Below, piece by piece: positions 13,579 to 46,365 of a DNA stretch of 64,000 bases. The notes beneath the pieces were generated by a model, which made no database searches, was not told the origin of the DNA, and saw only the letters and a list, made by a program, of their open reading frames with translations. Numbering within the stretch: position 1 is the stretch's first letter; each line of letters starts with the position of its first letter. A program made the translations under genes and the position numbers. The DNA is from an uncultured Spirochaetales bacterium (GTDB lineage: Bacteria > Myxococcota_A > UBA9160 > SMWR01): positions 6,389 to 70,388 of the forward strand of contig CAZZFT010000010.1 in assembly GCA_964653555.1 (NCBI GenBank), written 5' to 3'.

Positions 13579-13635
13579 CGCGACGGAAAGCGGGGCGCGA
13601 CGGGACGCAAGTGTCCTTGCGGCCCGCGATCCCGT

Positions 13636-29495: not shown

Positions 29496-29499
29496 CTCT

Positions 29500-30438: not shown

Positions 30439-30441
30439 GGG

Positions 30442-31587
30442 TTACTCGCGCGGCAGACCCAGCCAGCGGCTGGCGATCAGGTTGAGGTTGATCTCGGTGG
30501 TGCCGACGGCGACTCCGGCCGGCATCGCGAGGCGCCAGTAGGACTCGCCGAAGTGGCCGTAGGCGAGCGACTCGCTGCCGAAGATCTCGAGTGCGAGGTC
30601 CGAGACCGCGTTCTCGCACATCGTGCCGGCGACGCGCGCCAGGTTGGTGTCGGGGGTCGGCTCGCTGCCCTTCGCGCGCAGGTCGATCACGCGGTAGGAG
30701 AGCAGCCGCCCGACTTCCACGGCGCAGCGGGCCGCGCCGAGCTTCTCCTGGACGACCGGGTCGCCCAGCATGCCGCGCTCACGAGCCGCCCCGGCCAGCG
30801 CGTCGAGCGTGAGCGCCGCGCGCGCGTAGCGCATGGCTCCTACGCGCTCGAAGGCGAGCGCGTAGGAGACGACGCCCCAGCCTTCGCCCTCGGGACCGAG
30901 CCGACAGCCGGCCGGGATCCGCGCTTCGTCGAAGAAGAGCTCGTGGAAGTAGCGTTCGCCGATCACCGCCGGAACCTCTCGCACCGAGATCCCGGGTGCA
31001 TTCATCGGCGCCAGCAGCACCGTGATGCCGCGGTGCCGCTTCGAGGTCGGGTCGGTGCGTACGAGCAGGAAGCAGTACTCGGCCCCGGATACGTAGGAGG
31101 TCCAGATCTTCGATCCGTTCACGACGTAGTCGTCGCCCTCCCGCACGGCAGCGGTGCGCAGGGAGACCAGGTCGCTTCCGGCCTCCGGCTCCGAGAAGCC
31201 TTGACACCAGAGGACGTCACCCGCGGAGATCCTCGGCAGGTGGAGCGCCTTCTGCTCTTCGGTGCCGTACTTCATGATCGTCGGGCCGATCCAGTTGACG
31301 TTCATGTACTGGGAGCCGCGCGGCTCGCCGACCCGCCACATCTCCTCGGAGAGGATGGCGTGCCGCCAGGGTGTGGCGTCGCCGCCCCCGTAGGCCGCCG
31401 GCCAGTTCTGGGTGAGCCAGCCGCGCTGGGCGAGCTTCGCGCAGAAGGCGCGCGAGAAGGTGGACTGGGCGTCGCTGCCTGGTCCGTCCGCGGAGAGCTC
31501 CGCCCAGTCGGGCGGAAGCTCCGCGTCGAGGAACGCGCGCAGCTCGCGCCGGAAGGTCTCGTCGCCTTCGGACCAGTCGAATTCCAA
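30442..31587 (-). CDS. acyl-CoA dehydrogenase family protein (long paralog)
   Basis: 381 aa. Has 'WCQGFSEPEAGSDLVSL', 'YVVNGSKIWTSY' and 'AVGTTEINLNLIA'. Confidence 0.9.
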   Translation of the reverse strand: MEFDWSEGDETFRRELRAFLDAELPPDWAELSADGPGSDAQSTFSRAFCAKLAQRGWLTQNWPAAYGGGDATPWRHAILSEEMWRVGEPRGSQYMNVNWIGPTIMKYGTEEQKALHLPRISAGDVLWCQGFSEPEAGSDLVSLRTAAVREGDDYVVNGSKIWTSYVSGAEYCFLLVRTDPTSKRHRGITVLLAPMNAPGISVREVPAVIGERYFHELFFDEARIPAGCRLGPEGEGWGVVSYALAFERVGAMRYARAALTLDALAGAARERGMLGDPVVQEKLGAARCAVEVGRLLSYRVIDLRAKGSEPTPDTNLARVAGTMCENAVSDLALEIFGSESLAYGHFGESYWRLAMPAGVAVGTTEINLNLIASRWLGLPRE

Positions 31588-31729
31588 GGGTCACCTCCCC
31601 CTGTTCGCGAGGACCTGCGCAGTCTATCGCGGACGCGGCCTGCGGCGCGCCGTCTCGGCCGCGAGGGTCCGATCCGCGTCTCTCTGCATTTTCCTTCTCT
31701 GACTCGCGCCGGTGGTGTAGGTCTAGCGC

Positions 31730-33400
31730 GTGGCCCGCACCGCTCCCGAAGCCCTGGACACGCCTCGCTTCCCCGACTACGAGCCGACCGTTCCGAGGTT
31801 CCTGGCCGAGGTCGCCAAGGGCCACCGCGAGCGGCCGCTGATCGCACTCGGCGACCGCCGCATCAGCTACGCCGAGGCCGAGCGCGCCTCCGCCCGCCTC
31901 GCCCGCGGTCTGCTGGCCCGGGGCATCGCGAAGGGCAGCCACGTGGCCGTGCTGGCGCCGAACGGCCCCGACTGGGTGGTGTGGTGGCTGGCCGCGGCGC
32001 GCGTCGGCGCCGTCGTGGTTCCCCTCAACACCTTCTACAAGCCGCGCGAGCTCGGCTACGTGCTCCGCCACGCCGACGTGCAGGCGCTGATCGCGGTGCC
32101 GCGACTCCTGAGCCACGACTACCTGGAGCGCATCGAGGCCTGCGCGCCGTCGCTCGCCGGTCAGGCCCCGTCGGCGCTGTCCGCGCGCGAGCTCCCGCTG
32201 TTGCGGCGTGTCTTCGTCGCCGGGGACGGCGGGGGACGCAGCTGGGCGACCCCGCTCTCGGAGCTCGAGGCCACCGCCGACGCCTCACCGGCGCCGGACG
32301 GGTCCCGGCTCGCCGAGATCGAGGCGGCCGTCCGCCCGGCCGATCCCATGCTCCTGATCTACACCTCGGGCAGCACCGGCGATCCGAAGGGCGCCCTGCA
32401 CAGCCAGGGAGCGCCGATCCGGCACGCCTACAACCTGAACCGGTTCCGCGATCTCGAGACCTCCGACCGCATCTTCTCTCCGATGCCCTTCTTCTGGGTG
32501 GGCGGCTTCGTGTTCACGCTCCTCTCGGCGATGCACGTCGGGGCCTTCCTGGTCTGCGAGGAGGCGTTCGAGCCCGGCGAGACCCTGGCGCTGCTCGAGC
32601 GCGAGCGCGTGACGATCGCCGCCGGCTGGCCGCACTACGCGAAGGCGATGGTCGACCATCCGAGCTTCGCGTCGCGCGATCTCCGCTCGATCCGTTCGGG
32701 CAACCTCTACGCCGTCCTGCCCGAGGCGTCGCGGCCGGCGGACCCGGAGCTGCGGTCGAACTCGCTCGGGATGACCGAGACCTGTGGTCCCCACACGATC
32801 GACCGGATGGACGTCGATCTCCCCGAGCGGCTGCGCGGGTCCTTCGGTCGCTCGGTTCCGGGCCTCGAGCACAAGATCGTCGACCCGCAGACCGGCGAGA
32901 CGCTCGGGCCCGGTCGCGTCGGCGAGATCTGCGTGCGCGGCTACAGCCTGATGCTCGGTCTCTACAAGCGGGAGCGCGAGGAGGTCTTCGACCGCGACGG
33001 CTACTACCACACGGGAGACGCGGGCCACTTCGATGCCGAGGGCTACCTCTTCTTCTCGGCCCGGCTCGGGGAGATGATCAAGGCCGCCGGCGCGAACGTG
33101 ACCCCGCGCGAGGTGGAGGTCGCGATCGAGGCGCTTCCCGAGGTGGTGTCGGCCTTCGTCGTGGGCGTGCCCGATCCCGTCCGGGGACAGGCCGTGGCCG
33201 CGGCGGTGGTGCTCAAGCGCGGCGCCGCCCTCGACGCCGACACCGCCAGCGCGCGCCTGCGCGACGAGCTGGCGAGCTACAAGGTGCCGCGCCACTGGCT
33301 CTTCGCGTCGAAGGAGGAGCTGCCCTTCACCGACAGCGGCAAGATCGACAAGAAGCGGCTGGCGGTGCTGCTGGCCGAGCACCCCGGCATGGGCGTCTAG
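31730..33400 (+). CDS. AMP-dependent acyl-CoA synthetase/ligase (FadD-like)
   Basis: 556 aa, GTG start, divergent from the ACAD operon. AMP-binding motif 'LIYTSGSTGDPKG', plus 'YHTGDAG' and the C-terminal 'DSGKIDKKRL'. Confidence 0.9.
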   Translation: MARTAPEALDTPRFPDYEPTVPRFLAEVAKGHRERPLIALGDRRISYAEAERASARLARGLLARGIAKGSHVAVLAPNGPDWVVWWLAAARVGAVVVPLNTFYKPRELGYVLRHADVQALIAVPRLLSHDYLERIEACAPSLAGQAPSALSARELPLLRRVFVAGDGGGRSWATPLSELEATADASPAPDGSRLAEIEAAVRPADPMLLIYTSGSTGDPKGALHSQGAPIRHAYNLNRFRDLETSDRIFSPMPFFWVGGFVFTLLSAMHVGAFLVCEEAFEPGETLALLERERVTIAAGWPHYAKAMVDHPSFASRDLRSIRSGNLYAVLPEASRPADPELRSNSLGMTETCGPHTIDRMDVDLPERLRGSFGRSVPGLEHKIVDPQTGETLGPGRVGEICVRGYSLMLGLYKREREEVFDRDGYYHTGDAGHFDAEGYLFFSARLGEMIKAAGANVTPREVEVAIEALPEVVSAFVVGVPDPVRGQAVAAAVVLKRGAALDADTASARLRDELASYKVPRHWLFASKEELPFTDSGKIDKKRLAVLLAEHPGMGV

Positions 33401-33518
33401 CCACCGCGGACCGGATCGCCCGTCTCGCTTCGGTGAGCCGATCGTTTCGCGAAGCGCAGCGGGTCGAGCTCCGGGATCGTCGAGTGCGAATCGAAGCCGG
33501 CGGGCTCCTTCCTCGACG

Positions 33519-33914
33519 TCAACCGGACCGCGTCGACCCTGGTGCGCGAGCGCGCAGGATGATTCCGCAGCCTGCGCCCCAGACGACCATCACGACTGCG
33601 AGCGTCCGACCCGCGGTGCCCAGCGCCGGCGCGGGGAAGGCCGCGTGCGAGGGGGTGGGAGCTGGCGCCGCCGCATCGGCGGGTGGCGACGGCGCAGGCT
33701 GTAGGGGCAACGCGCCGCGGCTCCGATCGCTCGAGGAAACGATCACGATCAGCCCCCCACCGTCCGAGTCCTCCGGCGGTCCCGTTCCGCTGACCACCAC
33801 GACCGTGGTGTCGCCGTCACATGCCATCAGCGCGCACGTGGTCGAGATCGACGCGAGCAGGCGGCGAAGCACTCGACCCGAGGGCATCCACATCCGCATG
33901 CAGCATCTTGGCAC
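33519..33914 (-). CDS. hypothetical small protein (weak call): lipobox-like N-terminus, C-terminal hydrophobic helix + Arg tail
   Basis: Only ORF in a 0.73-kb gap. Has 'RRLLASISTTCALMAC|DGD' (lipobox-like LMAC) and the C-terminal 'LAVVMVVWGAGCGIILRARA'. My hand count of third-position G+C is about 81%, between coding (~90%) and non-coding values. It may not be a gene. Confidence 0.3.
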   Translation of the reverse strand: MPRCCMRMWMPSGRVLRRLLASISTTCALMACDGDTTVVVVSGTGPPEDSDGGGLIVIVSSSDRSRGALPLQPAPSPPADAAAPAPTPSHAAFPAPALGTAGRTLAVVMVVWGAGCGIILRARAPGSTRSG

Positions 33915-34126
33915 GAATCGGACCGACTCTCGCGGGCGTACGACGCAATTCCACTTCCCCGATCTTGCGAGAATCCAATGTGGAGCTCGCGCAGGATGTG
34001 GCTCATGCCGGGGAAGGTCGAGAGAGAGAAGGCGCGGCCGCGACGCCCGTGCTCGAGCGCCCCGCGTCCCGGCGGGGACGCCGCGCCGTGAAGCCCGGCC
34101 GACGGCGGCGTGGGTCGCCGGTTCGC

Positions 34127-35117
34127 TCAGCCCGTCACGCGGCGGAGCAGCTCGCCGGCCCGCTCCACGCTGCCCTCCTCGTGGCGTCGGCGGGAAGGTT
34201 CACGATCACCCCGTCGAGCCCGACTCCGAGGACCCGGTCCTGGAGGAACTCGCCGACCGTATCGGCGTCGCCCAGGAGAAGCGCCTGGTCGATCGTCCGC
34301 TGCATGTTCTCGGGGAGCTTCGCGAAGTCGATGCCGCGCCGGTGGAGGAACCCGTCGCGCGCTCTCTCGGCCTCCTCCGGGGTGGGAGCGAGGATCATCG
34401 AGCCGAGCCACGAGACGCCGATGCTCGCGCGGTCGCGCCCGACGTCGGCGCAATGGCGCTCGAGTGCCTCGAGCTTGCGCGGAACGTCCGAGGGCGGACA
34501 CGTCCAGTTGCTCTCGTCGGCGAACTCGGCGACGAGCCGGAGCGTCCGCTTCTCGCCCGTATCCCCGATCAGGATCGGTGGGCCGCCCGCGCGCACGGGC
34601 GGCGGCTCGTTCAGCGCTTCGCTAGCGCGATAGAAGGCGCCCTCGAACGATGGTCGCTTGCCGCGCAGCATGGGATGGATGATCTGGAGTGCTTTCTCCA
34701 GACGGCCGAGCCGCTCGCCGAGCGGTAGGAACTCGAAGCCGTAGCCGCGGTGCTCGACGTCGAACCAGCCGGCCCCGATCCCGGCGAGCGCGCGCCCGCG
34801 CGACACGACGTCGAGCGTGGTGACCATCTTCGCCAGCAGTGCAGGGTTGCGGTAGGTGTTGCCCGCCACCAGGGTCGACAGGCTCACGCGCTCCGTACCC
34901 GCCGCGAGGGCCCCGAGCAGCGTGTACGCCTCGAGCATTAGGCGTCCGGCGGACCGAGCGCGGGTAGCTGGTAGAAGTGGTCCCTCACCAGCACCGTGTC
35001 GAAGCCCGCCTGCTCTGCCCGTCGCGCGATCGAGCCGACGGCCTCGAACAGACCCGCTGCGTCCACGCCGGGGTAGGTGAAGTTCGGGATCTGGAGGCCT
35101 CGGCGAATGACGGGCAT
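34127..35117 (-). pseudogene. LLM-class F420-dependent oxidoreductase (Rv1855c-like), disrupted by at least one frameshift
   Basis: The ATG at 35117 gives 'MPVIRRGLQIPNFTYPGVDAAGLFEAVGSIARRAEQAGFDTVLVRDHFYQLPALGPPDA*', with TAA at 34938-34940. The family sequence continues in another frame from the overlapping ATG (TAATG, 34936-34938) as 'MLEAYTLLGALAAGTERVSLSTLVAGNTYRNPALLAKMVTTLDVVSRGRALAGIGAGW...'. Near 34180-34190 the family-like C-terminus ('HEEGSVERAGELLRRVTG*', ending at 34127) switches frame again. Confidence 0.7.
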
Positions 35118-35204
35118 GGGATCTCTCTTCCGTCGCGGGCGCCGTCCGCCCTTGTATCACTCTCGGCGTGTGCCGATCGGAACGGTTCGGAATCCGCTAG
35201 CGTC

Positions 35205-36251
35205 GTGATCCGGTTGGACCACGAACGACGAGCACTGTGCGCATCGCCGGCGATCGTCGGGGTGCGATGGGTGGTCCTGGCTCTCGGAGCCGGGTTGCTG
35301 ACGCAACCCTCTGGGGCGGGTGACGCCATCTTGCGTCGGGTTGCCGGGATTCCGCTGCCCGGTGTGGTGGGCCGCATCGACCACCTCGCTCTCGATCCGG
35401 CGCACCACCGCTTGTTCGTCGCAGCTGTCGCGGAGGGCAGCGTCGAGGTGCTCGACCTGGCGGAGAATCGCCGGGTCGGCCGGATCGAAGGCCTCTCCGA
35501 GCCGCAGGGTGTTCTCTACCTGCCGGAGCCCCAGAGGCTCTATGTGACGATCGGCGGCGCTGCCGGCGTCGCAGTCCGGAGCGGCGCCGATCTCGCGAGC
35601 ACCGAGCGGATCGCGACCCGGGAGGATCCCGACAACATCCGGTACGAAGCGGGCGCCGACCGGATCTGGGTCGGTGCCGGAAGGGGAGAGCAGGCCGCGC
35701 TCGTGGCGCTGGGTTCCAGCGCCGGAGAACCCCTCTTCGACATCGCCTTGGATGGCCATCCGGAATCCTTCCAGCTCGAGACGAAGGGCTCGCGAATCTT
35801 CGTGAACGTGCCGAGCGAGCAAGAGGTCGAGGTCGTCGACCGCGAGCTGCGCAACGTCGTCACCCGATGGAAGCTCCCCTGCGCCTCGAACTTCCCGATG
35901 GCGTTCGACGAGGAGCGCAAGCGCCTCTTCGTCGTCTGTCGTCGGCCGGCCCGAATCGTCGGTCTCGATACGGACACGGGCCGGGTGGTCACGGAGGGCG
36001 ACGGCCCCGCCGACGCGGACGATATCTTCGTCGATTCCGCCGCCGGCCGTATCTACGTCTCGGCGGGGGAGGGACTCGTCCGCACCTACGATCGCCGGGA
36101 AGGCGATCGTCTTGCGGTGGCCGGCGACGTTCCGACCGGGAGTGGCGCCCGTACGAGCTTGTTCGACACCCGGTCGCGCCGCCTCTACGTCGCCGTGCCC
36201 GCTCGAGACTCCGCGCCCGCCGAGATCCAGGTATTCGACGTCGCGGACTAG
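35205..36251 (+). CDS. secreted seven-bladed beta-propeller protein (YncE/YVTN-repeat-like)
   Basis: Seven spaced repeats of R(L/I)(F/Y/W)V...(V)xD: 'RLFVAAVAEGSVEVLD', 'RLYVTIGG', 'RIWVGAG', 'RIFVNVPSEQEVEVVD', 'RLFVVCRRPARIVGLD', 'RIYVSAGEG', 'RLYVAVPA...IQVFD'. Signal-peptide-like 'RWVVLALGAGLLTQPSGAG'. The start is ambiguous between GTG 35205 and GTG 35262. The track start 34977 overlaps the LLM gene. Confidence 0.7.
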   Translation: MIRLDHERRALCASPAIVGVRWVVLALGAGLLTQPSGAGDAILRRVAGIPLPGVVGRIDHLALDPAHHRLFVAAVAEGSVEVLDLAENRRVGRIEGLSEPQGVLYLPEPQRLYVTIGGAAGVAVRSGADLASTERIATREDPDNIRYEAGADRIWVGAGRGEQAALVALGSSAGEPLFDIALDGHPESFQLETKGSRIFVNVPSEQEVEVVDRELRNVVTRWKLPCASNFPMAFDEERKRLFVVCRRPARIVGLDTDTGRVVTEGDGPADADDIFVDSAAGRIYVSAGEGLVRTYDRREGDRLAVAGDVPTGSGARTSLFDTRSRRLYVAVPARDSAPAEIQVFDVAD

Positions 36252-36343
36252 CGGGGCGCTTCCGCCCGATCCGGGCGGCGCGAAGATGCGGGCCTTCCGG
36301 TGCGCTGGCGAGGGCGAGGGCCTGCGGCCGGAACGGGGTCGCC

Positions 36344-36472
36344 GATCGATCCATATCGATTCACTGCTATCGAATTGATCCAGGCTGAGCGCACTCGGGC
36401 CATTTCCATCGCGCTCCATCGTGCGTATGGGGCGTGAAATGCGAACCGTATTGATTCGTGTAGAATGCGTTT
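36344..36472 (+). promoter_or_regulatory. AT-rich regulatory island upstream of the 36.5-43.7 kb operon
   Basis: A visibly low-GC stretch in a high-GC genome. It has three ATCGA(T/A) cores at 36345, 36355 and 36369 ('gatcgatccatatcgattcactgctatcgaattgatc'). It also has TTGATT (36451-36456) and an extended -10-like TGTAGAAT (36459-36466), just upstream of the first gene (SD GGGAG at 36489-36493, GTG at 36500). Confidence 0.35.
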
Positions 36473-36499
36473 TTGCTTCGACCCGCGCGGGAGCGATCC

Positions 36500-37048
36500 G
36501 TGCCCGCGGGTCCCGCACCACCCCCATCTGAGGCCGAGACGATCGATCCGCGATCTCCCGCAGGCGTCGCGCGCCGCGCCACACGCCGCCGCCCGGACTT
36601 CGAGCCACCCCCGCGCGCGCGGACCGCCCGGCTCGCAGCGGTCCTGCTCGCGATCGCTCCTCTCGCCGCCGCGGCGCAGGTCGATCTCTCGGCGTCGCCC
36701 GAGTCGTCCAGCGACGGGGTGATCCAGGTCCGCTGGTCGGGAGCCGACGGAGTCGTGCTCGAGGAGTCGCGTCGTCCCGACTTCGCAGACGCGCACGAGG
36801 TGTACCGAGGGACCGATCGCTCGACCGTGCTGACGGGTCGCATCGACGGCGCCTATCACTACCGTCTGCTCGCGCTCGACGGCTCCGATCCCATCGCCCC
36901 GGACGTGAACGTGGAGGTCGCGCACCATCCGCTCCCGCGCGCCTTCGCCTTCTTCGGCGTGGGTCTGTTCGTCTTCGTCTGCACGACGGCACTGGTGTTG
37001 AGCGATCCCGATCCCTCCGGGCCGAGCGGGGACGACGCGCATGGGTGA
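36500..37048 (+). CDS. bitopic membrane/secreted protein with FN3-like beta-sandwich segment, unknown function
   Basis: The GTG at 36500 is preceded by GGGAG with 6-nt spacing; the track start at TTG 36473 is an alternative. Has the signal/anchor 'RTARLAAVLLAIAPLAAAAQ', the domain 'VIQVRWSGADGVVLEESRRPDFADAHEVYRGTDRSTVLTGRIDGAYHYRLLA' and the C-terminal TM 'AFAFFGVGLFVFVCTTALVL'. Its stop overlaps the next start by 8 nt. Confidence 0.55.
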   Translation: MPAGPAPPPSEAETIDPRSPAGVARRATRRRPDFEPPPRARTARLAAVLLAIAPLAAAAQVDLSASPESSSDGVIQVRWSGADGVVLEESRRPDFADAHEVYRGTDRSTVLTGRIDGAYHYRLLALDGSDPIAPDVNVEVAHHPLPRAFAFFGVGLFVFVCTTALVLSDPDPSGPSGDDAHG

Positions 37049-38282
37049 TATCCTGCGGATCGACGCGGCCCGGCTCGAGTCGGACATCGCGACGCTGGGT
37101 GAGATCGGTCGCAACGAGGAGCGCGGGCTGAATCGGACCGCCTTCAGCGAGGGCGACATGGCGGGCCGCGCCTGGCTGACGGCGCAGATCGAGAAGGCGG
37201 GTCTGTCGCCTCGGCTCGACGGCGCGGCCAATCTCGGGACGCGGCTGCTCGGGGAGCGGGACGACCAGCCTTGCGTCATGACCGGCTCGCACATCGACAC
37301 GGTTCCGGGGGCCGGACAGCTCGACGGCGCCCTGGGCGTGCTGTGCGGTCTCGAGGTGTTGCGCGTGCTCTCCGCGTCGCGCATTCCGCTGCGGTGCCCG
37401 ATCGAGCTGGTCGCCTTCAGCGACGAGGAAGGCCGCTTCGGCGGGATGCTCGGCTCCCAGGCGATGAGCGGCCGGCTCACGCCCGAGTCGATCCACGCCG
37501 CGCGCGACCTCGACGGGATCCCGCTCGTCGAGGCGATGGCCGAGCGGGGCTACCGCGCGATGGACGCGCTGAAGGCCGAACGCGAGCCCGGCAGCATCCA
37601 CGCCTTCGTCGAGCTGCACATCGAGCAGGGCCCGGTGCTGGACCGCCGCGGGTCCTCGATCGGACTGGTCGACGCGATCACGGGCCTGTTCCGCTGGGAC
37701 GTGCGCTTGATCGGGGAGGCCAACCACGCGGGCACCACGCCGATGGATCTGCGCCGCGACGCCTTCCAGGGCCTGGCGGAGCTGGCGGGCGAGATCGATC
37801 GGGTGCTCGAGGAGCACGGGACCGCGCGCAGCCGCGCGACGATCGGCCGTGTCGATCTGCATCCGGGAGCTGCGAACGTGGTGCCCGGCGAGGCCCGCTT
37901 CGCGCTCGAGGTGCGCGACACCGACGCGCGCACCCTGGAGGAGCTGTCCCACGGCTTCCGCCGTGCGCTCTCGGCGATCGCACGGCGCCGAAACCTGATG
38001 TTCGAGTTCCAGGTGGTGAGCGAGATCGCTCCGGTGAGCTGCAGCGAGCGTGTGATGGAGGCGGTGCGCCGGGCCTGCGGAGAGCTCGGCGTCGAGCCCC
38101 TGGCGATGCCGAGCGGGGCCGCCCACGACACCCAGATGATCGCGGGCATCGCACCGGCCGGGATGATCTTCGTGCCCAGCCGCGCCGGTCGCAGCCACTC
38201 GCCGGCCGAATGGACCTCGCCCAGCGACATCGAGCTCGGAGCCAACGTGCTGCTCCACACCCTGCTGGATCTCGCGTCGTGA
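37041..38282 (+). CDS. M20-family Zn hydrolase: allantoate amidohydrolase / N-carbamoyl-L-amino-acid hydrolase (carbamoylase) type
   Basis: 413 aa. Has 'GSHIDTVPGAGQLDGALGV', 'VAFSDEEGRFGG', 'HAFVELHIEQGPVL', 'ANHAGTTPM' and 'MPSGAGHD'-like 'MPSGAAHDTQ', characteristic of the AmaB/AllC/HyuC subfamily. Confidence 0.9.
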   Translation: MGDILRIDAARLESDIATLGEIGRNEERGLNRTAFSEGDMAGRAWLTAQIEKAGLSPRLDGAANLGTRLLGERDDQPCVMTGSHIDTVPGAGQLDGALGVLCGLEVLRVLSASRIPLRCPIELVAFSDEEGRFGGMLGSQAMSGRLTPESIHAARDLDGIPLVEAMAERGYRAMDALKAEREPGSIHAFVELHIEQGPVLDRRGSSIGLVDAITGLFRWDVRLIGEANHAGTTPMDLRRDAFQGLAELAGEIDRVLEEHGTARSRATIGRVDLHPGAANVVPGEARFALEVRDTDARTLEELSHGFRRALSAIARRRNLMFEFQVVSEIAPVSCSERVMEAVRRACGELGVEPLAMPSGAAHDTQMIAGIAPAGMIFVPSRAGRSHSPAEWTSPSDIELGANVLLHTLLDLAS

Positions 38283-39067
38283 GCAAGCCGACGCCGAGCG
38301 AGCCGAAGCTCGATCCGGAAGACGCCTCCGTGACGGAAGCGGCACACCCCGAGTACCTGAACGTCGACCCGCTGCGCGAGAGCTACCGCGAGGCGTTCAT
38401 CGAGAGCCCCGCCCTTCGCCGCTCGGTCGAGCATCTGAGCACGGCGCTCTTGTGCATCGACATGCAGTACCTCGACGCGGCGCCGGGCGTCGGCGTCTTC
38501 GCCGACGCCGTGGTCTCGGGGGTCGCTCCCGAGGCGCAGGAATACTACTTCGACCGGCTCGACAAGGTGGTACTGCCGAACGTCCGCCGCCTGCAGGAGA
38601 CCTTCCGCGCCGCCGGTCTGGAGGTGATCCACACACGCATCCAGTCGCTGACCCGCGACGGCCGCGACCGCAGTCCGGGCCACAAGCGTCTCGGCCTGCA
38701 CGCGCCTCCGGATTCGAAGGAGGCGGAGTTCCTGGAGGTGGTGGCGCCCCAGGGCGACGAGATCGTGATCGACAAGACGGCCTCCGGCGTCTTCAACTCC
38801 ACCAACCTCTCCTACGTCCTGCGCAACCTCGGGATCACCGGCCTCTTCGTCACCGGCGTCTACACCAACGAGTGCGTCTCCACCGCGATCCGCGACGCGT
38901 GCGACCTGGGCTTCTACACCACGCTGATCTCCGACGGCTGCGCGACCGTCACGCCGGAGCTGCAGGAGGCGACGATCACCACGCTGCGCGATCGCTACTC
39001 CCGGGTGCGCACCACCGAGGAGGCGATCGCCGAGGTCCAGCACCTCGTGGGGCTCGAGCATGGATGA
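38279..39067 (+). CDS. isochorismatase-family cysteine hydrolase (N-carbamoylsarcosine amidase / RutB / nicotinamidase-like)
   Basis: 262 aa. The GTG overlaps the upstream stop (GTGA). The Asp-Lys-Cys triad contexts are visible: 'LLCIDMQ', 'VIDKTASGVF' and 'VTGVYTNECVSTAIRDA'. About 45 aa of N-terminal extension. Confidence 0.88.
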   Translation: MSKPTPSEPKLDPEDASVTEAAHPEYLNVDPLRESYREAFIESPALRRSVEHLSTALLCIDMQYLDAAPGVGVFADAVVSGVAPEAQEYYFDRLDKVVLPNVRRLQETFRAAGLEVIHTRIQSLTRDGRDRSPGHKRLGLHAPPDSKEAEFLEVVAPQGDEIVIDKTASGVFNSTNLSYVLRNLGITGLFVTGVYTNECVSTAIRDACDLGFYTTLISDGCATVTPELQEATITTLRDRYSRVRTTEEAIAEVQHLVGLEHG

Positions 39068-40514
39068 CCTGAGCTCGGCGGTGCTCGATCCGCGCACCGG
39101 GTGGTGGATCCTCGCGGGCTTCAGCGTGCTCTGGGTGGTGCTCGGCGGCTGGCTCGGGCGGGGCTCGGACGACCTCGAGGGGTTCATGCTCGCCGGCCGC
39201 CGGGTCGGTCTCGCCCTCGGCGTGGCGACCGCGATGGCCACCTGGGTCACGAGCAACACCACGATGGCCGCGCCGCAGCTCGCCTTCCAGCTCGGCGTCT
39301 GGGGCATGATCGGATACTCCCTGGGCGCGGTGGGCCTGCTGCTCTTCGCGCCGCTCGCCAAGCGCATCCGCGAGCTGATGCCGGGAGGCTTCACCAGCGG
39401 CGACTTCGTTCGCCTGCGCTACGGCGCCACCGCCTGGCGTGTCTTCCTCGCCATCTCCTTCTTCTACGCCCTCGGCTGGCTGATCTCGATGGGCATGGCG
39501 GGAGGCGTGCTGATCCAGGCGCTCACCGGCATCCCCTACCGCTTCGGAATGAGCGTGATCGTCGCGATCTGCGTGCTCTACACGCTGATCGGCGGCCTGC
39601 GCGCGGTGATCGGCACCGACTTCGTCCAGACCCTGATCATCCTGGTCGGCGTCACGTTGCTGGCGTGGCTGGCGATCGACCGCGTCGGCTTCGGCGTGAT
39701 GCACGACGCCGTCCAGGCCGAGAGCCCCGAGCTGCTCGACCTGCTGATGCCCGCCGCGATCATGTTCCTGTTCAACAACCTGCTCTTCGGCGTGGGAGAG
39801 ATCTTCCACTCGAACGTGTGGTGGAGCCGGGCGTTCGCTTTCCGCGAGGGCGTCGGACGGCCCGCCTACCTGATCGCGGGCTTGCTGTGGATTCCGATCC
39901 CGATCGTGGCCGGCTTCGTGGCACTCACCGTGCCCGCCCAGGGGTTGAACGTGCCGTCCGCCGACATGGTGGGGCCGCTGGTGGCGGCGAACCTGCTCGG
40001 CGAGAGCGGCGCCGTGCTCGTCTTCATCGTCGTGTTCGCCGCGCTCGCCTCCAGCCTCGACTCGCTGCTCGCCGCCACCTCGGACCTCGTGCTCACCGAC
40101 CTCTACAAGGGTCACCTGCGCCCCGACGCGACATCCGACGACCTCGCGCGCGCGGCGCGCTGGGTGGTGCTAGGGCTGGGCGTGGTGACCTGGCTGTTGT
40201 GCCTGCCCCGGCTCGCGACCCTCGCCGAGTTGCTCCACTTCACCGGCGCCTTCGTCGCCAGCACGATCTGGCCGATCGCCGCAGGCCTGTACTGGCGCCG
40301 CGCCAGTGCGGGCGGCGCCGTGGCCGGGATGATCCTCGGCACCACCGCCGGGCTGCTCGCCTACTTCGCGATCGGCTTCTACGTCGCGGCGCTGGTCTCG
40401 GCCGCCGTGTCGATGTGCGCCGTGTGGCTCGCCGCGCGGCTCCGGCCCGACGACTTCGACTGGCTCGCACTCGCAGCGACCGGACCGGTCGCGCAAGAGG
40501 AAACGCGCGCATGA
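39060..40514 (+). CDS. sodium:solute symporter (SSS) family transporter
   Basis: 484 aa with about 13 hydrophobic segments. Has 'FMLAGRRVGLALGVATAMATWVTSNT' and 'SGDFVRLRYG', typical of SSS permeases. The start overlaps the upstream stop by 8 nt. Confidence 0.9.
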   Translation: MDDLSSAVLDPRTGWWILAGFSVLWVVLGGWLGRGSDDLEGFMLAGRRVGLALGVATAMATWVTSNTTMAAPQLAFQLGVWGMIGYSLGAVGLLLFAPLAKRIRELMPGGFTSGDFVRLRYGATAWRVFLAISFFYALGWLISMGMAGGVLIQALTGIPYRFGMSVIVAICVLYTLIGGLRAVIGTDFVQTLIILVGVTLLAWLAIDRVGFGVMHDAVQAESPELLDLLMPAAIMFLFNNLLFGVGEIFHSNVWWSRAFAFREGVGRPAYLIAGLLWIPIPIVAGFVALTVPAQGLNVPSADMVGPLVAANLLGESGAVLVFIVVFAALASSLDSLLAATSDLVLTDLYKGHLRPDATSDDLARAARWVVLGLGVVTWLLCLPRLATLAELLHFTGAFVASTIWPIAAGLYWRRASAGGAVAGMILGTTAGLLAYFAIGFYVAALVSAAVSMCAVWLAARLRPDDFDWLALAATGPVAQEETRA

Positions 40515-40633
40515 CGGCCTCCGTTTCGTTCCTTTCCTGGTTGATCACCGGTGCGACGGTCGTGGCGACGATCGCGCCGGTGGTGCTGATCGTCCTCTGG
40601 ATTCGCGACGCGCGGAGAGGGAACCTGTGGTGA
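40511..40633 (+). CDS. 40-aa single-pass membrane peptide coupled to the SSS transporter
   Basis: The ATG overlaps the transporter stop (ATGA), and its own stop overlaps the next start. Sequence 'MTASVSFLSWLITGATVVATIAPVVLIVLWIRDARRGNLW'. Hand-counted third-position G+C is about 87%, which is coding-like. It is below the track's length threshold as a separate ORF. Confidence 0.55.
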   Translation: MTASVSFLSWLITGATVVATIAPVVLIVLWIRDARRGNLW

Positions 40634-41682
40634 ACGCGAGCCTCGACGCGAAGCTGGCCGACATCCAGAGCGAGCCGGCCCTCGACACCCAGGGCTTCGA
40701 GCGGCCTCGGGCGTTGATGGACGCGGTGTCCGAGAACCTGGCACCGCTGCTCGAGCTGGCGAGTCGACCCGTGATCACGGCGCGTCAGTTCGAACGGGAT
40801 CAGATCGCGCAGCTGTGCCGGCTCGCTGCGCGCTACGAGACCCAGCCCCAGCGGATCATCCGGCCGCTGACCGGCAAGATCCTGGTCAGCGCCTTCTACG
40901 AGCCCAGTACTCGCACGCGGCTCTCCTTCGAGAGCGCCTGGCACCGCCTCGGGGGCGACGTGATGTCGATCACCGACCCGTTGTCGACCGGCATCGCCAA
41001 GGGCGAGTCCCTCCAGGACATCGGGGAGATGCTGAACCACTACGGAGATCTGGTGGTGCTGCGCGACTCCGACGAGCGCGCCGTGTACGAGATGCTCGAG
41101 ACGCTCCGCATCCCCATCGTAAACGGTGGCAACGGGCTCGACGAACACCCGACCCAGGCGCTGGCCGACGTGTACGCGCTGCTCAAGTGGCGCCCCGAGA
41201 TCGCGAGCAGCGGGCTGGAGGCTCCCGCGCGGATCGGGATCATCGGCGTGCCCGGACGCATGCGCACGGTGCGCAGCCTGCTGATCCTGCTGACCCGCTT
41301 CGCGGCGAGCATCGAGGAAGTGGTGATCGTCACCGACGAGGAGGAGCCCTTCTCCGAGGGGCAGCAGAAGGAGCTCGACGAGGGCGGCTTGCGGCTGTCC
41401 GTCTCGAATCGGCTCGACGCGACGCTGCCGCAGCTCGACGTCGTCTACATCAACTCGATCGCCTGGAAGGGTGGCGACTACGAGGAGATGGGCGCGAACT
41501 TCCGTCTCGGCGCCGACTCGCCGCTCAAGCCGGGAGCCATCGTCCTGCATCCCCTCGCGCGCGGCGAGGAGCTCGACACCAGCCTCGACGAGACCCCCCA
41601 CAACTGGTACTTCGCGCAGGCGCGCGGAGCCGTCTTCATCCGCATGGCGTTGCTCTCGGCCATGCTCAAGACCTACGTCTGA
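40627..41682 (+). CDS. aspartate/ornithine carbamoyltransferase-family enzyme, PyrB-like but with altered second-substrate pocket
   Basis: 351 aa from GTG 40627, or GTG 40630 which would give a GTGA overlap. Carbamoyl-phosphate motifs 'EPSTRTRLSFE' and 'DEHPTQALAD', then 'LHPLARG' (PyrB has HPLPR) and the PyrB-like C-terminus 'TPHNWYFAQARGAVFIRMALLSAML'. The segment aligned to E. coli 'DILYMTRVQKER' reads 'DVVYINSIAWKG'. About 40 aa of N-terminal extension. Confidence 0.85.
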   Translation: MVNASLDAKLADIQSEPALDTQGFERPRALMDAVSENLAPLLELASRPVITARQFERDQIAQLCRLAARYETQPQRIIRPLTGKILVSAFYEPSTRTRLSFESAWHRLGGDVMSITDPLSTGIAKGESLQDIGEMLNHYGDLVVLRDSDERAVYEMLETLRIPIVNGGNGLDEHPTQALADVYALLKWRPEIASSGLEAPARIGIIGVPGRMRTVRSLLILLTRFAASIEEVVIVTDEEEPFSEGQQKELDEGGLRLSVSNRLDATLPQLDVVYINSIAWKGGDYEEMGANFRLGADSPLKPGAIVLHPLARGEELDTSLDETPHNWYFAQARGAVFIRMALLSAMLKTYV

Positions 41683-41694
41683 GGAACCCGAACC

Positions 41695-43707
41695 ATGTGC
41701 GGAATCGCCGGCATCCTCCACGCCGACCGCGCCCGACCGGTCGACCCGGAGACGCTCGTCGCGATGGCGGCGATCCAGCACCACCGCGGTCCCGACGGCT
41801 TCGGCTGGCGCGCGCTGGAGGGCGTGGGAATGAGCCACGCGCGCCTGTCGATCATCGATCTCGACGAGGAGCGCGCCCGACAGCCCTTCACGAGCCGCGA
41901 CGGCAGTCTCCTGCTGGCGCACAACGGCGAGTTCTACGACTACAAGCGCCTTCGCGCGAACTTGTTCGCGCTCGGTGAGCGCTTCGACACCAAGAGCGAC
42001 TCCGAGCTCGTCCTGCACCTCGTGCCGCGGCTCGGTCTGGAAAGGACGCTGGCGGAGCTGCGCGGCGAGTTCGCCTTCGCGCTCTACGACCGCTCTCAGG
42101 ACACGCTGCATCTGGTTCGGGACCGCTTCGGCATCAAGCCGCTCTACTGGTGCTGCACCGGAGACACGCTGGTGTTCGGCTCGGAGCTCAAGGTGCTCTT
42201 CGCGCATCCCGAGGTTCCGCGGCGCTTCGATCCCGCCGGTCTCTACCACCAGCTCATGCAGGCGATCGTGCCCGGCTCGACGGCCTTCGAAGGCGTGCGT
42301 CAGGTGGCGCCCGGACACGTGCTGAGCGTGCGCCGGCGGGACGGCCGCTTCGCGATCGAGGATCGCCGCTACTGGGACATGCCCTTCCCCGAGGAGGGGG
42401 CCCACGCCGCCCTGTCGGACGAGCAGGCGATCGCTGCCGTGCGCGAGAAGCTGCTGGAGGCTGTGCAGCTGCGGCTCGAGGCCGACGTCCCGGTGGGTTG
42501 CTACCTCTCGGGCGGCATCGACTCCTGCTCGATCCTGGGCCTCGCTTCGGCCGCTCAGCAGTCGCCGGTCAAGGCCTTCACGATCGGCTTCGACAACGAC
42601 GACTACGACGAGACGCCGATCGCGCGCACGATGGCGGAGTCGGCGGGGGCCGACCAGGACGTACTGCGCCTCGACGCGACCCATCTCTACGACCACTTCG
42701 AAGAGACCCTCTGGCACACCGAGCGCACGATCTACAACACCCTCGCAGTGGCGAAGCTGTTGATGAGCCGTCACGTGAAGGAGGCGCGCTACAAGGTCGT
42801 GGTGACCGGGGAGGGCTCGGACGAGCTCTTCGCCGGCTACCCGGCGTTCCGCAACGATCTGTTCCTCCACGGTCTGGATCACATGCCGCCGACCGAGCGC
42901 CGGGAGTGGGAGAAGCTGCTGCACGAGAAGAACGCGCTGTTCAAGGGCGCGATGCTGGCGGAGAACGAGATCGCGGATCCCGCGCTCACGGAGCGCATCG
43001 GCTTCACGCCGGCCTGCCTCCAGCCGTGGCTGGCGGCGTCCCACCACGTGCCGGGCGTGCTGAACCGCGACCTGGCCGCGAAGCTCGAGGGCTACCAGCC
43101 GGGGCGGGCGATCGCAGAGACGCTCGACGCCGACGCGCTGGCCGGTCGACATCCCCTCGACCGGGCGCAGTACGTGTGGATCAAGACGATGCTCGAGGGA
43201 CAGATCCTCACCTGGGGCGGCGATCGGGTCGACATGGCGAACTCGATGGAGGCGCGCCCGGCCTTTCTCGATCACCATCTGGCCGAGCTCGCCGCGACGC
43301 TGCCGCCGACGGTTCGCATCCGCGGCCGTACCGAGAAGTGGGTGTTGCGCGAGGCGATGAAGGGCCTCTTGCCGCGCGTGCTCTACGAGCGCGAGAAGTT
43401 CGCGTTCATGGCGCCGCCCGCCCACACGGATCCGCGCAAGTGGGCCGCGATGCGCGGTCTGGCCGAGCGCCATCTCTCGCCGGCGGCGATCGAGGACGCG
43501 GGGCTACTCGACGCGGAGGGCGTCGCCGCGCTCTTCGCGCTGCACGACGCCCCCGACACCACGGTGGCGACGCGCAACACCCTCGACGCCGTGTTCAACC
43601 ACCTGATCGGCGTCCAGGTGCTGCACCGTCAGTTCGTCGCCAGCGACGTCCCGGCCCAGGCGCGCGAGCGCGCCCGGGAGCTCGGCTGGCGCGCTGAGGC
43701 GCGCTGA
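41695..43707 (+). CDS. asparagine synthase family glutamine-dependent amidotransferase (long AsnB/AsnO-like form)
   Basis: 670 aa, RBS GAGGAA. N-terminal nucleophile 'MCGIAG', then 'HRGPDG' and 'HNGEFYDY'. PP-loop 'CYLSGGIDSCSI'. Confidence 0.92.
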   Translation: MCGIAGILHADRARPVDPETLVAMAAIQHHRGPDGFGWRALEGVGMSHARLSIIDLDEERARQPFTSRDGSLLLAHNGEFYDYKRLRANLFALGERFDTKSDSELVLHLVPRLGLERTLAELRGEFAFALYDRSQDTLHLVRDRFGIKPLYWCCTGDTLVFGSELKVLFAHPEVPRRFDPAGLYHQLMQAIVPGSTAFEGVRQVAPGHVLSVRRRDGRFAIEDRRYWDMPFPEEGAHAALSDEQAIAAVREKLLEAVQLRLEADVPVGCYLSGGIDSCSILGLASAAQQSPVKAFTIGFDNDDYDETPIARTMAESAGADQDVLRLDATHLYDHFEETLWHTERTIYNTLAVAKLLMSRHVKEARYKVVVTGEGSDELFAGYPAFRNDLFLHGLDHMPPTERREWEKLLHEKNALFKGAMLAENEIADPALTERIGFTPACLQPWLAASHHVPGVLNRDLAAKLEGYQPGRAIAETLDADALAGRHPLDRAQYVWIKTMLEGQILTWGGDRVDMANSMEARPAFLDHHLAELAATLPPTVRIRGRTEKWVLREAMKGLLPRVLYEREKFAFMAPPAHTDPRKWAAMRGLAERHLSPAAIEDAGLLDAEGVAALFALHDAPDTTVATRNTLDAVFNHLIGVQVLHRQFVASDVPAQARERARELGWRAEAR

Positions 43708-43723
43708 CCGCGCGATCGCCCGG

Positions 43724-44863
<1,140 letters not shown>

Positions 44864-44916
44864 GATGCCTCCGAGAGAGCGGGCGGCCCAGCATACCGCA
44901 GCGCGCCGAGCCGCGA

Positions 44917-46365
44917 TCAGCCGCAGTCGTCGATCGCCGCGCGCAGGGAGCGCAGCTTCGCGCGGGCCTCGGCGTACTCGGCCTCGGGCGTCGAGTCGGC
45001 GACGATGCCCCCGCCCGTGTGCAGGTAGACCCGACCTCTCCGCACCAGGGCGGTGCGGATCACGACGCAGAGGTCGGCCCCTCCGCGCACGTCGAGGTAG
45101 CCGAGGGCGCCCGAGTAGAAGCCGCGCCGGACGGTCTCGAGCCCGTCGAGCACGCGCATCGCCGCGATCTTCGGTGCGCCGGTCATCGAGCCGGGCGGGA
45201 AGGTGGCGGCGACCGCGTCGAGGGCGTCGTGCTCGGGACGCAGTCGCCCGCGCACCGTCGACACCAGCTGGAACACCGACGCGTAGGGCTCCACCGAGAA
45301 GATTCCGGGCACCGCGATGGTGCCGGGCTCGCACACGCGTCCCAGGTCGTTGCGCACGAGGTCCACGATCATCACGTTCTCCGCCCGATCCTTGTCGGAG
45401 CAGGCCAGCGCCCGTCGCCGCGCGGCGTCCTCGGCGGGATGCGCGCCGCGGGAGGCGGTTCCCTTGATCGGCCGGCTCTCGACACCGCCGTCGGCGTCCA
45501 CGCGCAGGAAGCGCTCGGGAGAGCTGCTCGTGATCGCCACCTCGGGCAGGGCGAAGTGGGCGGCGAAGGGAGCCGGATCCCGCCGTCGCAGCGCGCGGTA
45601 GAGCCGCCACGGATCGCCCTCGAAGGACCGGTCGACGCGGTAGGTGAGACAGGCCTGGTAGATGCGACCGGCCGCGATCTGCTCGCCGATGTGCTCGACC
45701 GCCTTGCGGTAGTCGCCGATCTCGACGTCATCGCGGTCGGACGCTTCGCGTCGCTCCAGGGGTCTGGACCCGCGCGGCGGGCGGGTCGTCGGCCTCTCCA
45801 GCTTTCGCGCGAGGGACCGGGCCGCGATCTCCGCGCGCGCCCGCGCCCGGCTCGCGTCGACGGAGAAGCCGAGCCCCGACACCAGCGCGCTTCCGCACTC
45901 GTGGTCGAAGGCGACGATCGCGTCGACGAACAGCCACACTGCGTCGGGCAGTCCGAGATCGTCGGTGCCGTGCAATCGGTGCACGTCGAGCTGCTCGGCC
46001 AGCTCGTAGCCGAAGACGCCGACGGCTCCCCCGCAGAACGGGATCCCGGGATCGCACGGCGGCGCAGCGGGCATCAGCGCGCGGAGCGCCGGCAGCGTTG
46101 GGCCCACCGAGCTTGTCACGCCCGGAACCAGGCCTCCGTGTACGGCCCGCCGGCACTCCAGCTCGAGCGCGAGACCGCGGGCGCGCAGGACGAGATAGGG
46201 ATCGGCGCCGGCGAAGGAGAATCGGCCGATCTCGGGAAGCGGCAGGGCGCTCTCCAACAGCCAGGGCGCGTGCTCGCCGCGCAGCCGTTCGAAGACCCCG
46301 ACGGGGTCGAGGTCTCCGCCGAGGGGAAGCGAGAACTGGGCCGTCTGTCGCGGGGGAGCGGTCAT
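44917..46365 (-). CDS. chorismate-utilising enzyme, aminodeoxychorismate synthase component I (PabB)-like; anthranilate synthase I not excluded
   Basis: 482 aa from the ATG at 46365 (RBS GGAAAGG). Has '[10 protein letters not shown]', 'RPIKGT', '[19 protein letters not shown]', '[11 protein letters not shown]' and '[10 protein letters not shown]'. No glutaminase subunit is adjacent. Confidence 0.85.

Follow-up and report, generated by a model that had tools for sequence, protein, structure and literature searches.

Gene content of the locus

The 64,000-nt stretch of DNA analysed here (the window; contig CAZZFT010000010.1, assembly GCA_964653555.1) contains seven consecutive genes on the + strand between positions 36500 and 43707. 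The genes are separated by junctions of -8, -4, -8, -4, -7 and +12 nt, and codon-position GC analysis revealed a continuous run of + strand coding from about 36570 to 43740 in the same frames. The initial annotation had inferred a stoichiometrically coupled set from these junctions. However, overlapping junctions suggest translational coupling but do not show stoichiometric expression. Upstream of the first gene is a 248-nt intergenic leader or promoter region (36252–36499), preceded by a beta-propeller gene ending at 36251. This region holds the least GC-rich stretch of the locus; no sigma-70 consensus site and no Rfam family was found within it. In 26 related loci a divergent MarR-family regulator occupies this position, but it is absent here.

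The first gene, g1 (36500–37048), has a GTG start with a GGGAG ribosome-binding site upstream and encodes a small bitopic membrane protein with a signal or anchor segment, an invariant HHPLxRA motif and a C-terminal TM helix. Profile searches against Pfam and NCBIfam gave no hit. However, an AlphaFold model has pLDDT above 90 for residues 60–142, with seven strands, and its best matches among solved structures are all FN3 domains. The gene is present only where g4 is present, and we infer that g1 is an accessory subunit of the transporter. The fourth gene, g4 (39060–40514), overlaps g3 by 8 nt and encodes a permease of the sodium:solute symporter (SSS) family (Pfam SSF, 112.8 bits, profile positions 1–406). 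It falls below every substrate-specific NCBIfam cutoff (PutP, PanF, ActP), while orthologues in related operons are 70–83% identical. It is followed, with a 4-nt overlap, by g5 (40511–40633), encoding a 40-aa single-TM peptide (MTASVSFLSWLITGATVVATIAPVVLIVLWIRDARRGNLW). This ORF is a real gene: a 40-aa gene was called at the same position in independent assemblies, and tblastn finds it between g4 and g6 at 35–75% identity in most related loci. It gives only a weak DUF7554 hit below the cutoff and is probably a small subunit of the SSS permease.

Two hydrolases are encoded between g1 and g4. The product of g2 (37041–38282, overlapping g1 by 8 nt) carries Pfam Peptidase_M20 and M20_dimer domains and belongs to the hydantoinase/carbamoylase family, scoring 392.7 against TIGR01879 (cutoff 204) and 508 against NF006771 (cutoff 399). 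Its second-best NCBIfam match, the N-carbamyl-L-glutamate amidohydrolase ErtE, scores 405 and does not reach the cutoff of 520. The best solved relative is the N-carbamoyl-L-amino acid hydrolase 3n5f at 296 bits, compared to 205 bits for allantoate amidohydrolase, consistent with an enzyme of the L-carbamoylase type. The next gene, g3 (38279–39067), has a GTG start, overlaps g2 by 4 nt and encodes an isochorismatase-fold cysteine amidohydrolase (Pfam Isochorismatase, 117 bits) with a D61-K165-C199 triad and a 55-aa N-terminal extension. K and C align to the catalytic residues of the cysteine hydrolases 6xix/6xj4, BiuH 6xjm and N-carbamoylsarcosine amidase 1nba. Partial matches to the BiuH and RutB models lie far below their cutoffs.

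The sixth gene, g6 (40627–41682), has a GTG start, overlaps g5 by 7 nt and encodes an ATCase-like transcarbamylase (TCase; Pfam OTCace_N and OTCace) of a distinct subfamily with a conserved 45-aa N-terminal extension. It falls below both ATCase equivalog cutoffs (183 vs 237 and 182 vs 263), and its family is set apart from canonical ATCases, which are 33–38% identical to it. Alignment to solved ATCases shows that every carbamoyl-phosphate residue and the alpha-carboxylate arginine are kept, while the two residues that hold the beta-carboxylate of aspartate are replaced. The initial annotation had proposed that the aspartate-binding residues are lost, which is a slight overstatement: the equivalents of K84 and R167 are kept, and only the R229/Q231 segment is replaced (TRVQK becomes N-S/A/T-I-A-W), together with a change of HPLPR to HPLAR. 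The STRTR, KGE and HPTQ motifs, the R167 equivalent and the replacement of R229/Q231 hold in all 85 orthologues. This fits an alpha-amino acid substrate with a neutral side chain.

The last gene, g7 (41695–43707), begins 12 nt downstream of g6 and encodes a 670-aa glutamine-dependent AsnB-type amidotransferase (Pfam GATase_6/7 and Asn_synthase). The N-terminal MCGIAG, including the glutaminase Cys2, and an SGGIDS PP-loop are intact. The protein scores 420.8 against TIGR01536 (cutoff 267), but only 302.8 against the AsnO model TIGR03104 (cutoff 570). Apart from the qualifications above, the domains are as the initial annotation described.

The operon is conserved and modular

To determine whether this gene set recurs elsewhere, we scanned species-representative genomes and found relatives of the TCase in 394 stretches. 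In the best 80 loci, the amidotransferase gene lies directly downstream of the TCase gene in 79 of 79 testable cases, and of 62 loci with enough upstream sequence, 40 carry all seven genes in the same order. The operon recurs in many, mostly salt-water, bacteria, with Gammaproteobacteria and Myxococcota-like MAGs carrying it at 60–84% identity, and a relative only 44–46% identical keeps the order FN3-SSS-40aa-TCase-AsnB-M20. The possibility that the genes are not co-conserved outside this genome is thus decisively excluded.

The operon splits into an invariant core of TCase and amidotransferase, an optional hydrolase pair (M20 L-carbamoylase and cysteine amidase) and an optional uptake module (FN3 membrane protein, SSS permease and 40-aa peptide). 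Eight loci have g2-g3-g6-g7 only, seven have g1-g4-(g5)-g6-g7 only and two have g6-g7 alone. The invariant part therefore consists of the two enzymes that consume ATP or carbamoyl phosphate, which points to synthesis as the core function.

One of the loci with g2-g3-g6-g7 lies on contig FOUO01000006 of 'E. mobilis DSM 4180'. DSM 4180 (FOUO00000000) is the type strain of Ectothiorhodospira marismortui (PMC8877833), the producer of N-carbamoyl-glutamine amide (CGA), a small salt-protection molecule known since 1991. No paper in the literature that we could search assigns genes to CGA.

We also examined the genomic neighbours of the operon. Glycine/sarcosine N-methyltransferase lies directly downstream on the same strand in 7 loci, followed by a sarcosine/dimethylglycine-methyltransferase-like gene in 6. 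A BCCT transporter lies nearby in 8 loci, and sucrose synthase is adjacent in 6, including E. marismortui. Compatible-solute genes thus appear enriched among the neighbours, although the enrichment was not assessed statistically and some of the loci are phylogenetically related. In contrast, the flanks in the window (acyl-CoA metabolism, CoA-transferases) show no osmotic theme.

A proposed pathway for a carbamoylated glutamine amide

Altogether, these results suggest that the operon is a self-contained cassette for a neutral, nitrogen-rich compatible solute of the N-carbamoyl amino-acid amide type, most likely serving the synthesis, turnover and Na+-coupled re-uptake of CGA or a close analogue. 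We assign this reading a probability of about 0.6. There are no metabolite, expression or enzyme data; the substrates, the order of steps, the direction of transport and the osmotic role are all inferred, and the substrate assignments rest on context and a few residues. We hypothesize that g6 transfers the carbamoyl group of carbamoyl phosphate to the alpha-amino group of L-glutamine, and that g7 adenylates the free alpha-carboxylate of the resulting N-carbamoyl-L-glutamine and amidates it with ammonia tunnelled from glutamine hydrolysis, yielding CGA. In the reverse direction, g3 would convert the 1-amide to acid and NH3 (or act on the ureido NH2), and g2 would cleave N-carbamoyl-L-glutamine to glutamine, CO2 and NH3. 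This would allow pool reduction after osmotic down-shift, or the use of imported solute as a nitrogen source. Finally, g4, with the small subunits g5 and g1, would take up or re-capture the solute using the Na+ gradient.

In this scheme each biosynthetic enzyme has a matching hydrolase, the TCase being paired with the L-carbamoylase and the amidotransferase with a cysteine amidase whose relatives cleave terminal -CO-NH2 groups. However, both g2 and g3 belong to families that can act as decarbamoylases, and the amidase role assigned to g3 is therefore uncertain. Co-transcription of synthesis and degradation genes also risks a futile cycle and needs enzyme-level control that is unexplained. Moreover, CGA was reported only as a minor solute of one species, yet the operon is widespread and also occurs in a few apparently non-marine MAGs, for example a Methylomonas MAG and a Nevskiaceae MAG.

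Alternative interpretations

Sequence alone cannot distinguish glutamine from asparagine or another neutral amino acid as the TCase substrate. It remains possible, though less likely, that the cassette makes and recycles a different N-carbamoyl amino-acid amide, such as the asparagine homologue, or a singly modified product, which could serve as an osmolyte, a nitrogen store or a signal. CGA in E. marismortui would then be made by this cassette only in that lineage, or by other genes. Indeed, the TCase pocket derives from a four-carbon (aspartate) site in which only the beta-carboxylate ligands are replaced, which could suit asparagine as well as glutamine; the operon is far more widespread than any reported occurrence of CGA; and g2 does not reach the cutoff of the N-carbamyl-glutamate-specific ErtE model. 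On the other hand, the one organism with chemical data on a compound of this class carries the cassette, and we are aware of no other natural N-carbamoyl amino-acid amide solute, nor did our literature search find one. A catabolic or scavenging pathway, also raised by the initial annotation, is not excluded but is disfavoured. In this case an external ureido compound would be imported by the permease and trimmed by the two hydrolases, or phosphorolysed by the TCase to carbamoyl phosphate (hence ATP or nitrogen), with the AsnB-like enzyme re-assimilating the released ammonia. A transporter plus two hydrolases is a typical catabolic layout, and catabolic transcarbamylases such as the ornithine, putrescine and oxamate enzymes are generally well established. 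However, the transporter and hydrolases are the dispensable parts of the operon, no carbamate kinase or other recurrent catabolic partner appears among the conserved neighbours, the linked neighbours are osmolyte synthesis genes, and an amidotransferase that consumes glutamine and ATP has no obvious place in a degradative route.

We consider it improbable that the association with CGA is coincidental and that the core pair amidates or carbamoylates something else, such as a cell-envelope component, a secondary metabolite or a thiol cofactor like glutathione amide, known in purple sulfur bacteria. Glutathione amide has been inferred for Chromatiaceae and most Ectothiorhodospiraceae from a glutathione reductase residue (PMC8877833), its amidating enzyme appears to be unassigned, and long AsnB-like proteins probably also amidate envelope components (g7 shows similarity to TIGR03108, but scores below its cutoff). 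This reading gives the TCase and the L-carbamoylase no role, and the operon also occurs in Myxococcota-like MAGs, Woeseiaceae and a Methylomonas MAG. In the same study, E. marismortui, which has the operon, is one of the exceptions in which no glutathione reductase was found, so that the proxy could not be applied. Least likely of all is that g6 is simply PyrB and g7 simply asparagine synthetase, placed next to unrelated genes. Automated annotations call these proteins 'aspartate carbamoyltransferase catalytic subunit' and g7 passes the generic asparagine synthase model, but the missed equivalog cutoffs, the absence of the R229/Q231 equivalents in all 85 orthologues and the separation of the g6 family from canonical ATCases argue against this view, and strict seven-gene synteny across phyla is not expected for housekeeping paralogues.

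Relationship to known systems

The proposed pathway resembles the asnO-ngg cluster for N-acetylglutaminylglutamine amide (NAGGN) synthesis of Sinorhizobium and Pseudomonas, likewise a compact osmolyte operon for a neutral, N-blocked, C-amidated glutamine-derived compatible solute. There, AsnO, a glutamine-dependent enzyme of the AsnB family, is understood to carry out the final amidation of the C-terminal alpha-carboxylate. Here, however, the N-blocking enzyme is a carbamoyl-phosphate-dependent transcarbamylase rather than the Ngg acetyltransferase/ligase, g7 falls well short of the AsnO model, and the operon carries its own hydrolases and a transporter. Compared to the aspartate carbamoyltransferase catalytic chain (PyrB), the best solved relatives of g6 at about 150 bits, g6 shares the fold and trimer-type motifs (STRTR, the K84-type KGE loop, R105, HPTQ and R167), but R229/Q231 are replaced by small or aromatic residues (N-x-I-A-W), and the gene is never next to pyrI or pyrC and is always followed by the AsnB-like gene.

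The g2 enzyme belongs to the same M20 family as the hydantoin-utilisation L-N-carbamoylases, such as the Geobacillus stearothermophilus enzyme (PDB 3n5f), and ErtE, but no hydantoinase or racemase is nearby and its genomic partner is a biosynthetic TCase. Similarly, g3 shares the D-K-C triad and fold of biuret hydrolase BiuH, triuret hydrolase, N-carbamoylsarcosine amidase and RutB, all of which hydrolyse a terminal -CO-NH2 group, although the similarity is low (60 bits or less, over part of the sequence), g3 has an N-terminal extension and all equivalog cutoffs are missed by a wide margin. The functional logic of a dedicated synthesis, degradation and re-uptake set for one compatible solute is that of the ectoine systems (ectABC synthesis, doe degradation, TeaABC/Ehu uptake). 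The enzymes are unrelated, and in ectoine systems the three functions are usually in separate loci, while here they are fused into one operon.

Gene structure of the operon

The window is about 71% G+C, so that raw ORF lists are dominated by shadow frames. Using codon-position GC analysis, we found an unbroken run of + strand coding from about 36.57 to 43.74 kb, in exactly the frames used in the initial annotation. The seven genes, all on the + strand, are g1 (36500-37048), g2 (37041-38282), g3 (38279-39067), g4 (39060-40514), g5 (40511-40633), g6 (40627-41682) and g7 (41695-43707), with successive junctions of -8, -4, -8, -4, -7 and +12 nt. An independent public assembly of the same sequence calls the same genes, including g5, which encodes only 40 aa. 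The same analysis rejected very long ORFs at 29116-34728 (+; 1870 aa), 35157-38345 (-; 1062 aa) and 40240-43473 (-; 1077 aa) as high-GC shadow frames, the real genes being placed on other frames or strands. An ORF at 38452-39072 was likewise rejected as the isochorismatase frame, the coding frame being that of 38279-39067.

A 248-nt intergenic region, the least GC-rich stretch of the locus, precedes g1. An Rfam scan of the whole window at gathering thresholds detected no RNA family, and hence no recognisable riboswitch in this leader. A scan of positions 36100-44000 for sigma-70 promoters and intrinsic terminators gave no promoter-like site, and the one terminator-like hairpin lies inside g5 and is within chance expectation. 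At the other end, a convergent CoA-transferase gene ends 16 nt after g7.

Domain assignment of the encoded proteins

g2 is an M20 enzyme of the hydantoinase/carbamoylase family, scoring 392.7 against TIGR01879 (cutoff 204) and 508 against NF006771 (cutoff 399). The model for ErtE, an N-carbamyl-L-glutamate amidohydrolase, is second best, but the score of 405.2 bits remains below its cutoff of 520. The closest solved relative is the L-N-carbamoylase 3n5f (296 bits), well ahead of allantoate amidohydrolase (205). g3 has the isochorismatase fold (PF00857, 117.4 bits) and carries D61, K165 and C199. K and C align to the catalytic residues of solved cysteine hydrolases that cleave terminal -CO-NH2 groups, namely biuret/triuret-type hydrolases, N-carbamoylsarcosine amidase and RutB, including the C-to-S mutant structure 6xj4. 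However, g3 gives only partial matches to the BiuH and RutB models (76.3 and 54.8 bits, with equivalog cutoffs of 370 and 378 bits).

g4 is a full-length permease of the sodium:solute symporter (SSS) family, with an SSF match of 112.8 bits over profile positions 1-406, but reaches no substrate-specific equivalog cutoff. g5 is a single-TM peptide of 40 aa. g1 has no family match, although it models confidently (pLDDT above 90 for residues 60-142) as a seven-stranded sandwich followed by a TM helix, and all its best solved-structure matches are FN3 domains. In g1 and its orthologues in related loci, an invariant HHPLxRA motif lies just before the TM helix. Since g1 occurs only where the SSS permease occurs, it may represent a previously undescribed accessory subunit of an SSS transporter.

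g7 is a class II glutamine amidotransferase/asparagine-synthetase-type enzyme. It has Cys2, within MCGIAG, and an SGGIDS PP-loop, and scores 420.8 against TIGR01536 (cutoff 267.1). It is not an orthologue of AsnO, the amidotransferase of NAGGN synthesis (TIGR03104, 302.8 bits against a cutoff of 570), and no ngg-like gene lies in the operon or among the recurrent neighbours of related operons.

The g6 transcarbamylase lacks the beta-carboxylate ligands of ATCase

g6 contains both transcarbamylase (TCase) domains (OTCace_N, 129.2, cutoff 29.9; OTCace, 45.4, cutoff 29.4) and is ATCase-like rather than OTCase-like (about 150 vs 72 bits to solved structures). Nevertheless, it fails both equivalog cutoffs for aspartate carbamoyltransferase (PyrB, EC 2.1.3.2), scoring 183.2 against TIGR00670 (cutoff 237) and 182 against NF002032 (cutoff 263). 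Aligned to solved ATCases, g6 keeps STRTR, the KGE loop (K84), R105, HPTQ and the R167 equivalent. In particular, the carbamoyl-phosphate site is intact, with PSTRTRL, VVLRD and DEHPTQA invariant or nearly so in 85 orthologues. In contrast, the TRVQK segment that carries R229 and Q231 is replaced by N-S-I-A-W (YINSIAW in g6 and Y(I/Q)N(A/T/S)I(A/L)W in the orthologues), and HPLPR is HPLAR. By reference to the E. coli ATCase-PALA structures, R167 should bind the alpha-carboxylate and R229/Q231 the beta-carboxylate. The enzyme should therefore still bind an alpha-amino acid, but not one with the side-chain carboxylate of aspartate, and the statement in the initial annotation that the TCase has lost the aspartate-binding residues is only half right. 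The first 45 codons of g6 (40627-40760) encode a conserved N-terminal extension (LDxQGFERPR...) that canonical ATCases lack.

The gene set is conserved and modular

The TCase has more than 120 database relatives at 68-79% identity, and a scan of one genome per species found 394 stretches that encode a relative. We searched the 80 best loci, plus four loci found by exact-protein look-up, with all seven proteins of the window. g7 directly follows g6 in 79 of the 79 loci where the contig allows, and all seven genes occur in order in 40 of the 62 loci with at least 4.6 kb of upstream sequence. Eight loci carry g2-g3-g6-g7 only, seven carry g1-g4-(g5)-g6-g7 only, and two carry g6-g7 alone. The cassette is therefore modular, with an invariant core of the two group-adding, energy-consuming enzymes, an optional pair of hydrolases and an optional transporter module of three membrane proteins.

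Judged by record titles, carriers are mostly marine or saline Gammaproteobacteria, comprising Ca. Thiodiazotropha clam symbionts, Thiogranum, Woeseiaceae, Sedimenticolaceae, Chromatiales, Thioalkalivibrio and salt-marsh MAGs, whereas the closest relatives of this window are Myxococcota-like MAGs. We infer that identities of 60-84% between phyla reflect horizontal spread, strong constraint or both.

The genes are present in a producer of N-carbamoyl-glutamine amide

Among the few cultured carriers are Ectothiorhodospira marina, E. haloalkaliphila, E. shaposhnikovii and 'E. mobilis DSM 4180', all of which carry g2-g3-g6-g7. DSM 4180 (FOUO00000000) is the type strain of Ect. marismortui (PMC8877833), the organism from which N-carbamoyl-glutamine amide (CGA) was isolated, the original work being that of Galinski and Oren (1991). 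The four genes lie on contig FOUO01000006 of this strain, at 60-71% identity. In the literature that could be searched, no paper mentioning the compound assigns genes to it, including a 2020 genome survey of osmolyte pathways in phototrophs, and nothing was found that links these genes to CGA or to salt response.

CGA is glutamine with a carbamoyl group on the alpha-amine and an amide on the alpha-carboxylate. These are exactly the two modifications that a transcarbamylase and an AsnB-type amidotransferase would add, and also exactly the two that an L-carbamoylase and a -CO-NH2 amidase would remove.

Compatible-solute genes in the neighbourhood of related operons

To look for further indications of an osmotic role, we clustered the flanking ORFs of related loci, identified them with NCBIfam and counted them by tblastn. 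A divergent MarR-family regulator lies upstream in 26 loci. Glycine/sarcosine N-methyltransferase (500 bits, cutoff 350) lies immediately downstream on the same strand in 7 loci, followed by a sarcosine/dimethylglycine-methyltransferase-like gene in 6. A BCCT transporter (passing TIGR00842) was found in 8 loci, and sucrose synthase (passing TIGR02470) in 6, including E. marismortui. This enrichment was counted without a statistical test, and some of the loci are related to each other. No carbamate kinase or other catabolic partner recurs. In two Thiogranum MAGs (loci L064, 11148-14393, and L066, 11126-14370), the operon is followed on the same strand by glycine/sarcosine methyltransferase, a sarcosine/dimethylglycine-methyltransferase-like gene and a BCCT transporter, which amounts to a compact osmolyte island. 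Two of the four-gene loci that lack the SSS module (L020, about 12381-13961, and L041, about 12377) have a BCCT transporter about 1.3 kb downstream, which may be a replacement uptake system.

In contrast, the flanks of the operon in this window show no osmotic theme, and a scan of them for osmotic genes found none. At 26585-33400, four acyl-CoA dehydrogenase paralogues and an enoyl-CoA hydratase on the - strand lie divergent from an AMP-dependent ligase (31730-33400, +), forming a compact acyl-CoA oxidation cluster unrelated to the operon. At 43724-46365 (-) and 49794-50987 (-) there are two family III CoA-transferases and a TrpE/PabB-like chorismate-binding enzyme (passing the pabB model TIGR00553, 336.8 vs 328.4), the latter convergent with the operon. 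A protein at 52830-53510 (-) has a C-terminal PEP-CTERM sorting motif, implying an exosortase system in this organism.

Proposed pathway and alternative explanations

We infer that g6 converts L-Gln and carbamoyl phosphate to N-carbamoyl-L-Gln, and that g7 converts N-carbamoyl-L-Gln, ATP and Gln to CGA, AMP, PPi and Glu. Carbamoylation probably comes first, as g6 keeps the alpha-carboxylate-binding arginine, and AsnB-type enzymes that amidate alpha-carboxylates would act on N-blocked substrates, as AsnO does in NAGGN synthesis. g3 would then convert CGA back to N-carbamoyl-Gln and NH3, and g2 would convert N-carbamoyl-Gln to Gln, CO2 and NH3. L-carbamoylases would need the free carboxylate, which would fix this order, although the roles of g2 and g3 could be swapped or overlapping. 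g4, with g5 and g1, would import or re-capture the solute using the Na+ gradient. In the absence of chemical or expression data, we put a probability of about 0.6 on the general model of a cassette for an N-carbamoyl amino-acid amide solute. The co-transcription of antagonistic enzymes remains unexplained under this model. The assignment to CGA specifically is more tentative. Glutamine cannot be told from asparagine by sequence. If the assignment holds, a solute thought to be a curiosity of one purple sulfur bacterium would be a widespread, horizontally mobile, nitrogen-rich osmolyte system with its own degradation and Na+-coupled uptake modules, occurring in marine-sediment Gammaproteobacteria (Woeseiaceae, Thiogranum, Sedimenticolaceae), lucinid-clam chemosymbionts (Ca. 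Thiodiazotropha), soda-lake sulfur oxidisers and Myxococcota. It would also give a genetic basis to a compatible solute described in 1991 and define a new substrate specificity within the well-studied transcarbamylase superfamily, and many database entries now labelled 'aspartate carbamoyltransferase' and 'asparagine synthase' would need re-annotation.

Among the alternatives, the same chemistry could yield a different product, which is possible but less likely. A catabolic or phosphorolytic pathway is disfavoured because the supposed catabolic parts of the operon are the dispensable ones. An unrelated amidation target for g7, such as glutathione amide, was considered and set aside as improbable. 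Least likely of all is that these are plain housekeeping paralogues, which is contradicted by the failed ATCase tests and by the cross-phylum synteny.

The system works like the NAGGN asnO-ngg cluster, in that an N-blocked, C-amidated glutamine solute would be made with an AsnB-type last step, but the AsnO cutoff is not reached and no ngg is present. It also follows the ectoine logic of synthesis plus degradation plus re-uptake, yet the enzymes are unrelated to the ectoine ones. The proposed compatible-solute cassette is built from an unassigned transcarbamylase subfamily, which belongs to the transcarbamylase superfamily but not to the ATCase equivalog.

Distant relatives of the transcarbamylase

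A relative only 44-46% identical to g6 (protein P0132) still sits in the order FN3-SSS-40aa-TCase-AsnB-M20. TCase-like proteins that are 36-41% identical to g6 (proteins P0141 and P0151; loci L087, 594-1670, L088 and L089) share the N-terminal extension, but their STRTR and KGE motifs are degenerate. No AsnB-like gene follows in L087, the one contig long enough to show it, the other contigs being only about 1.6 kb, and we do not count these proteins as part of the system. The L087 protein lies next to a spermine-synthase-like gene, and these proteins may be inactive or repurposed paralogues. In locus L086 (14992-17104), a reverse transcriptase (RVT_1), a bAvd accessory protein and an HRDC-domain gene lie next to a divergent copy of the operon, a set that looks like a diversity-generating retroelement.
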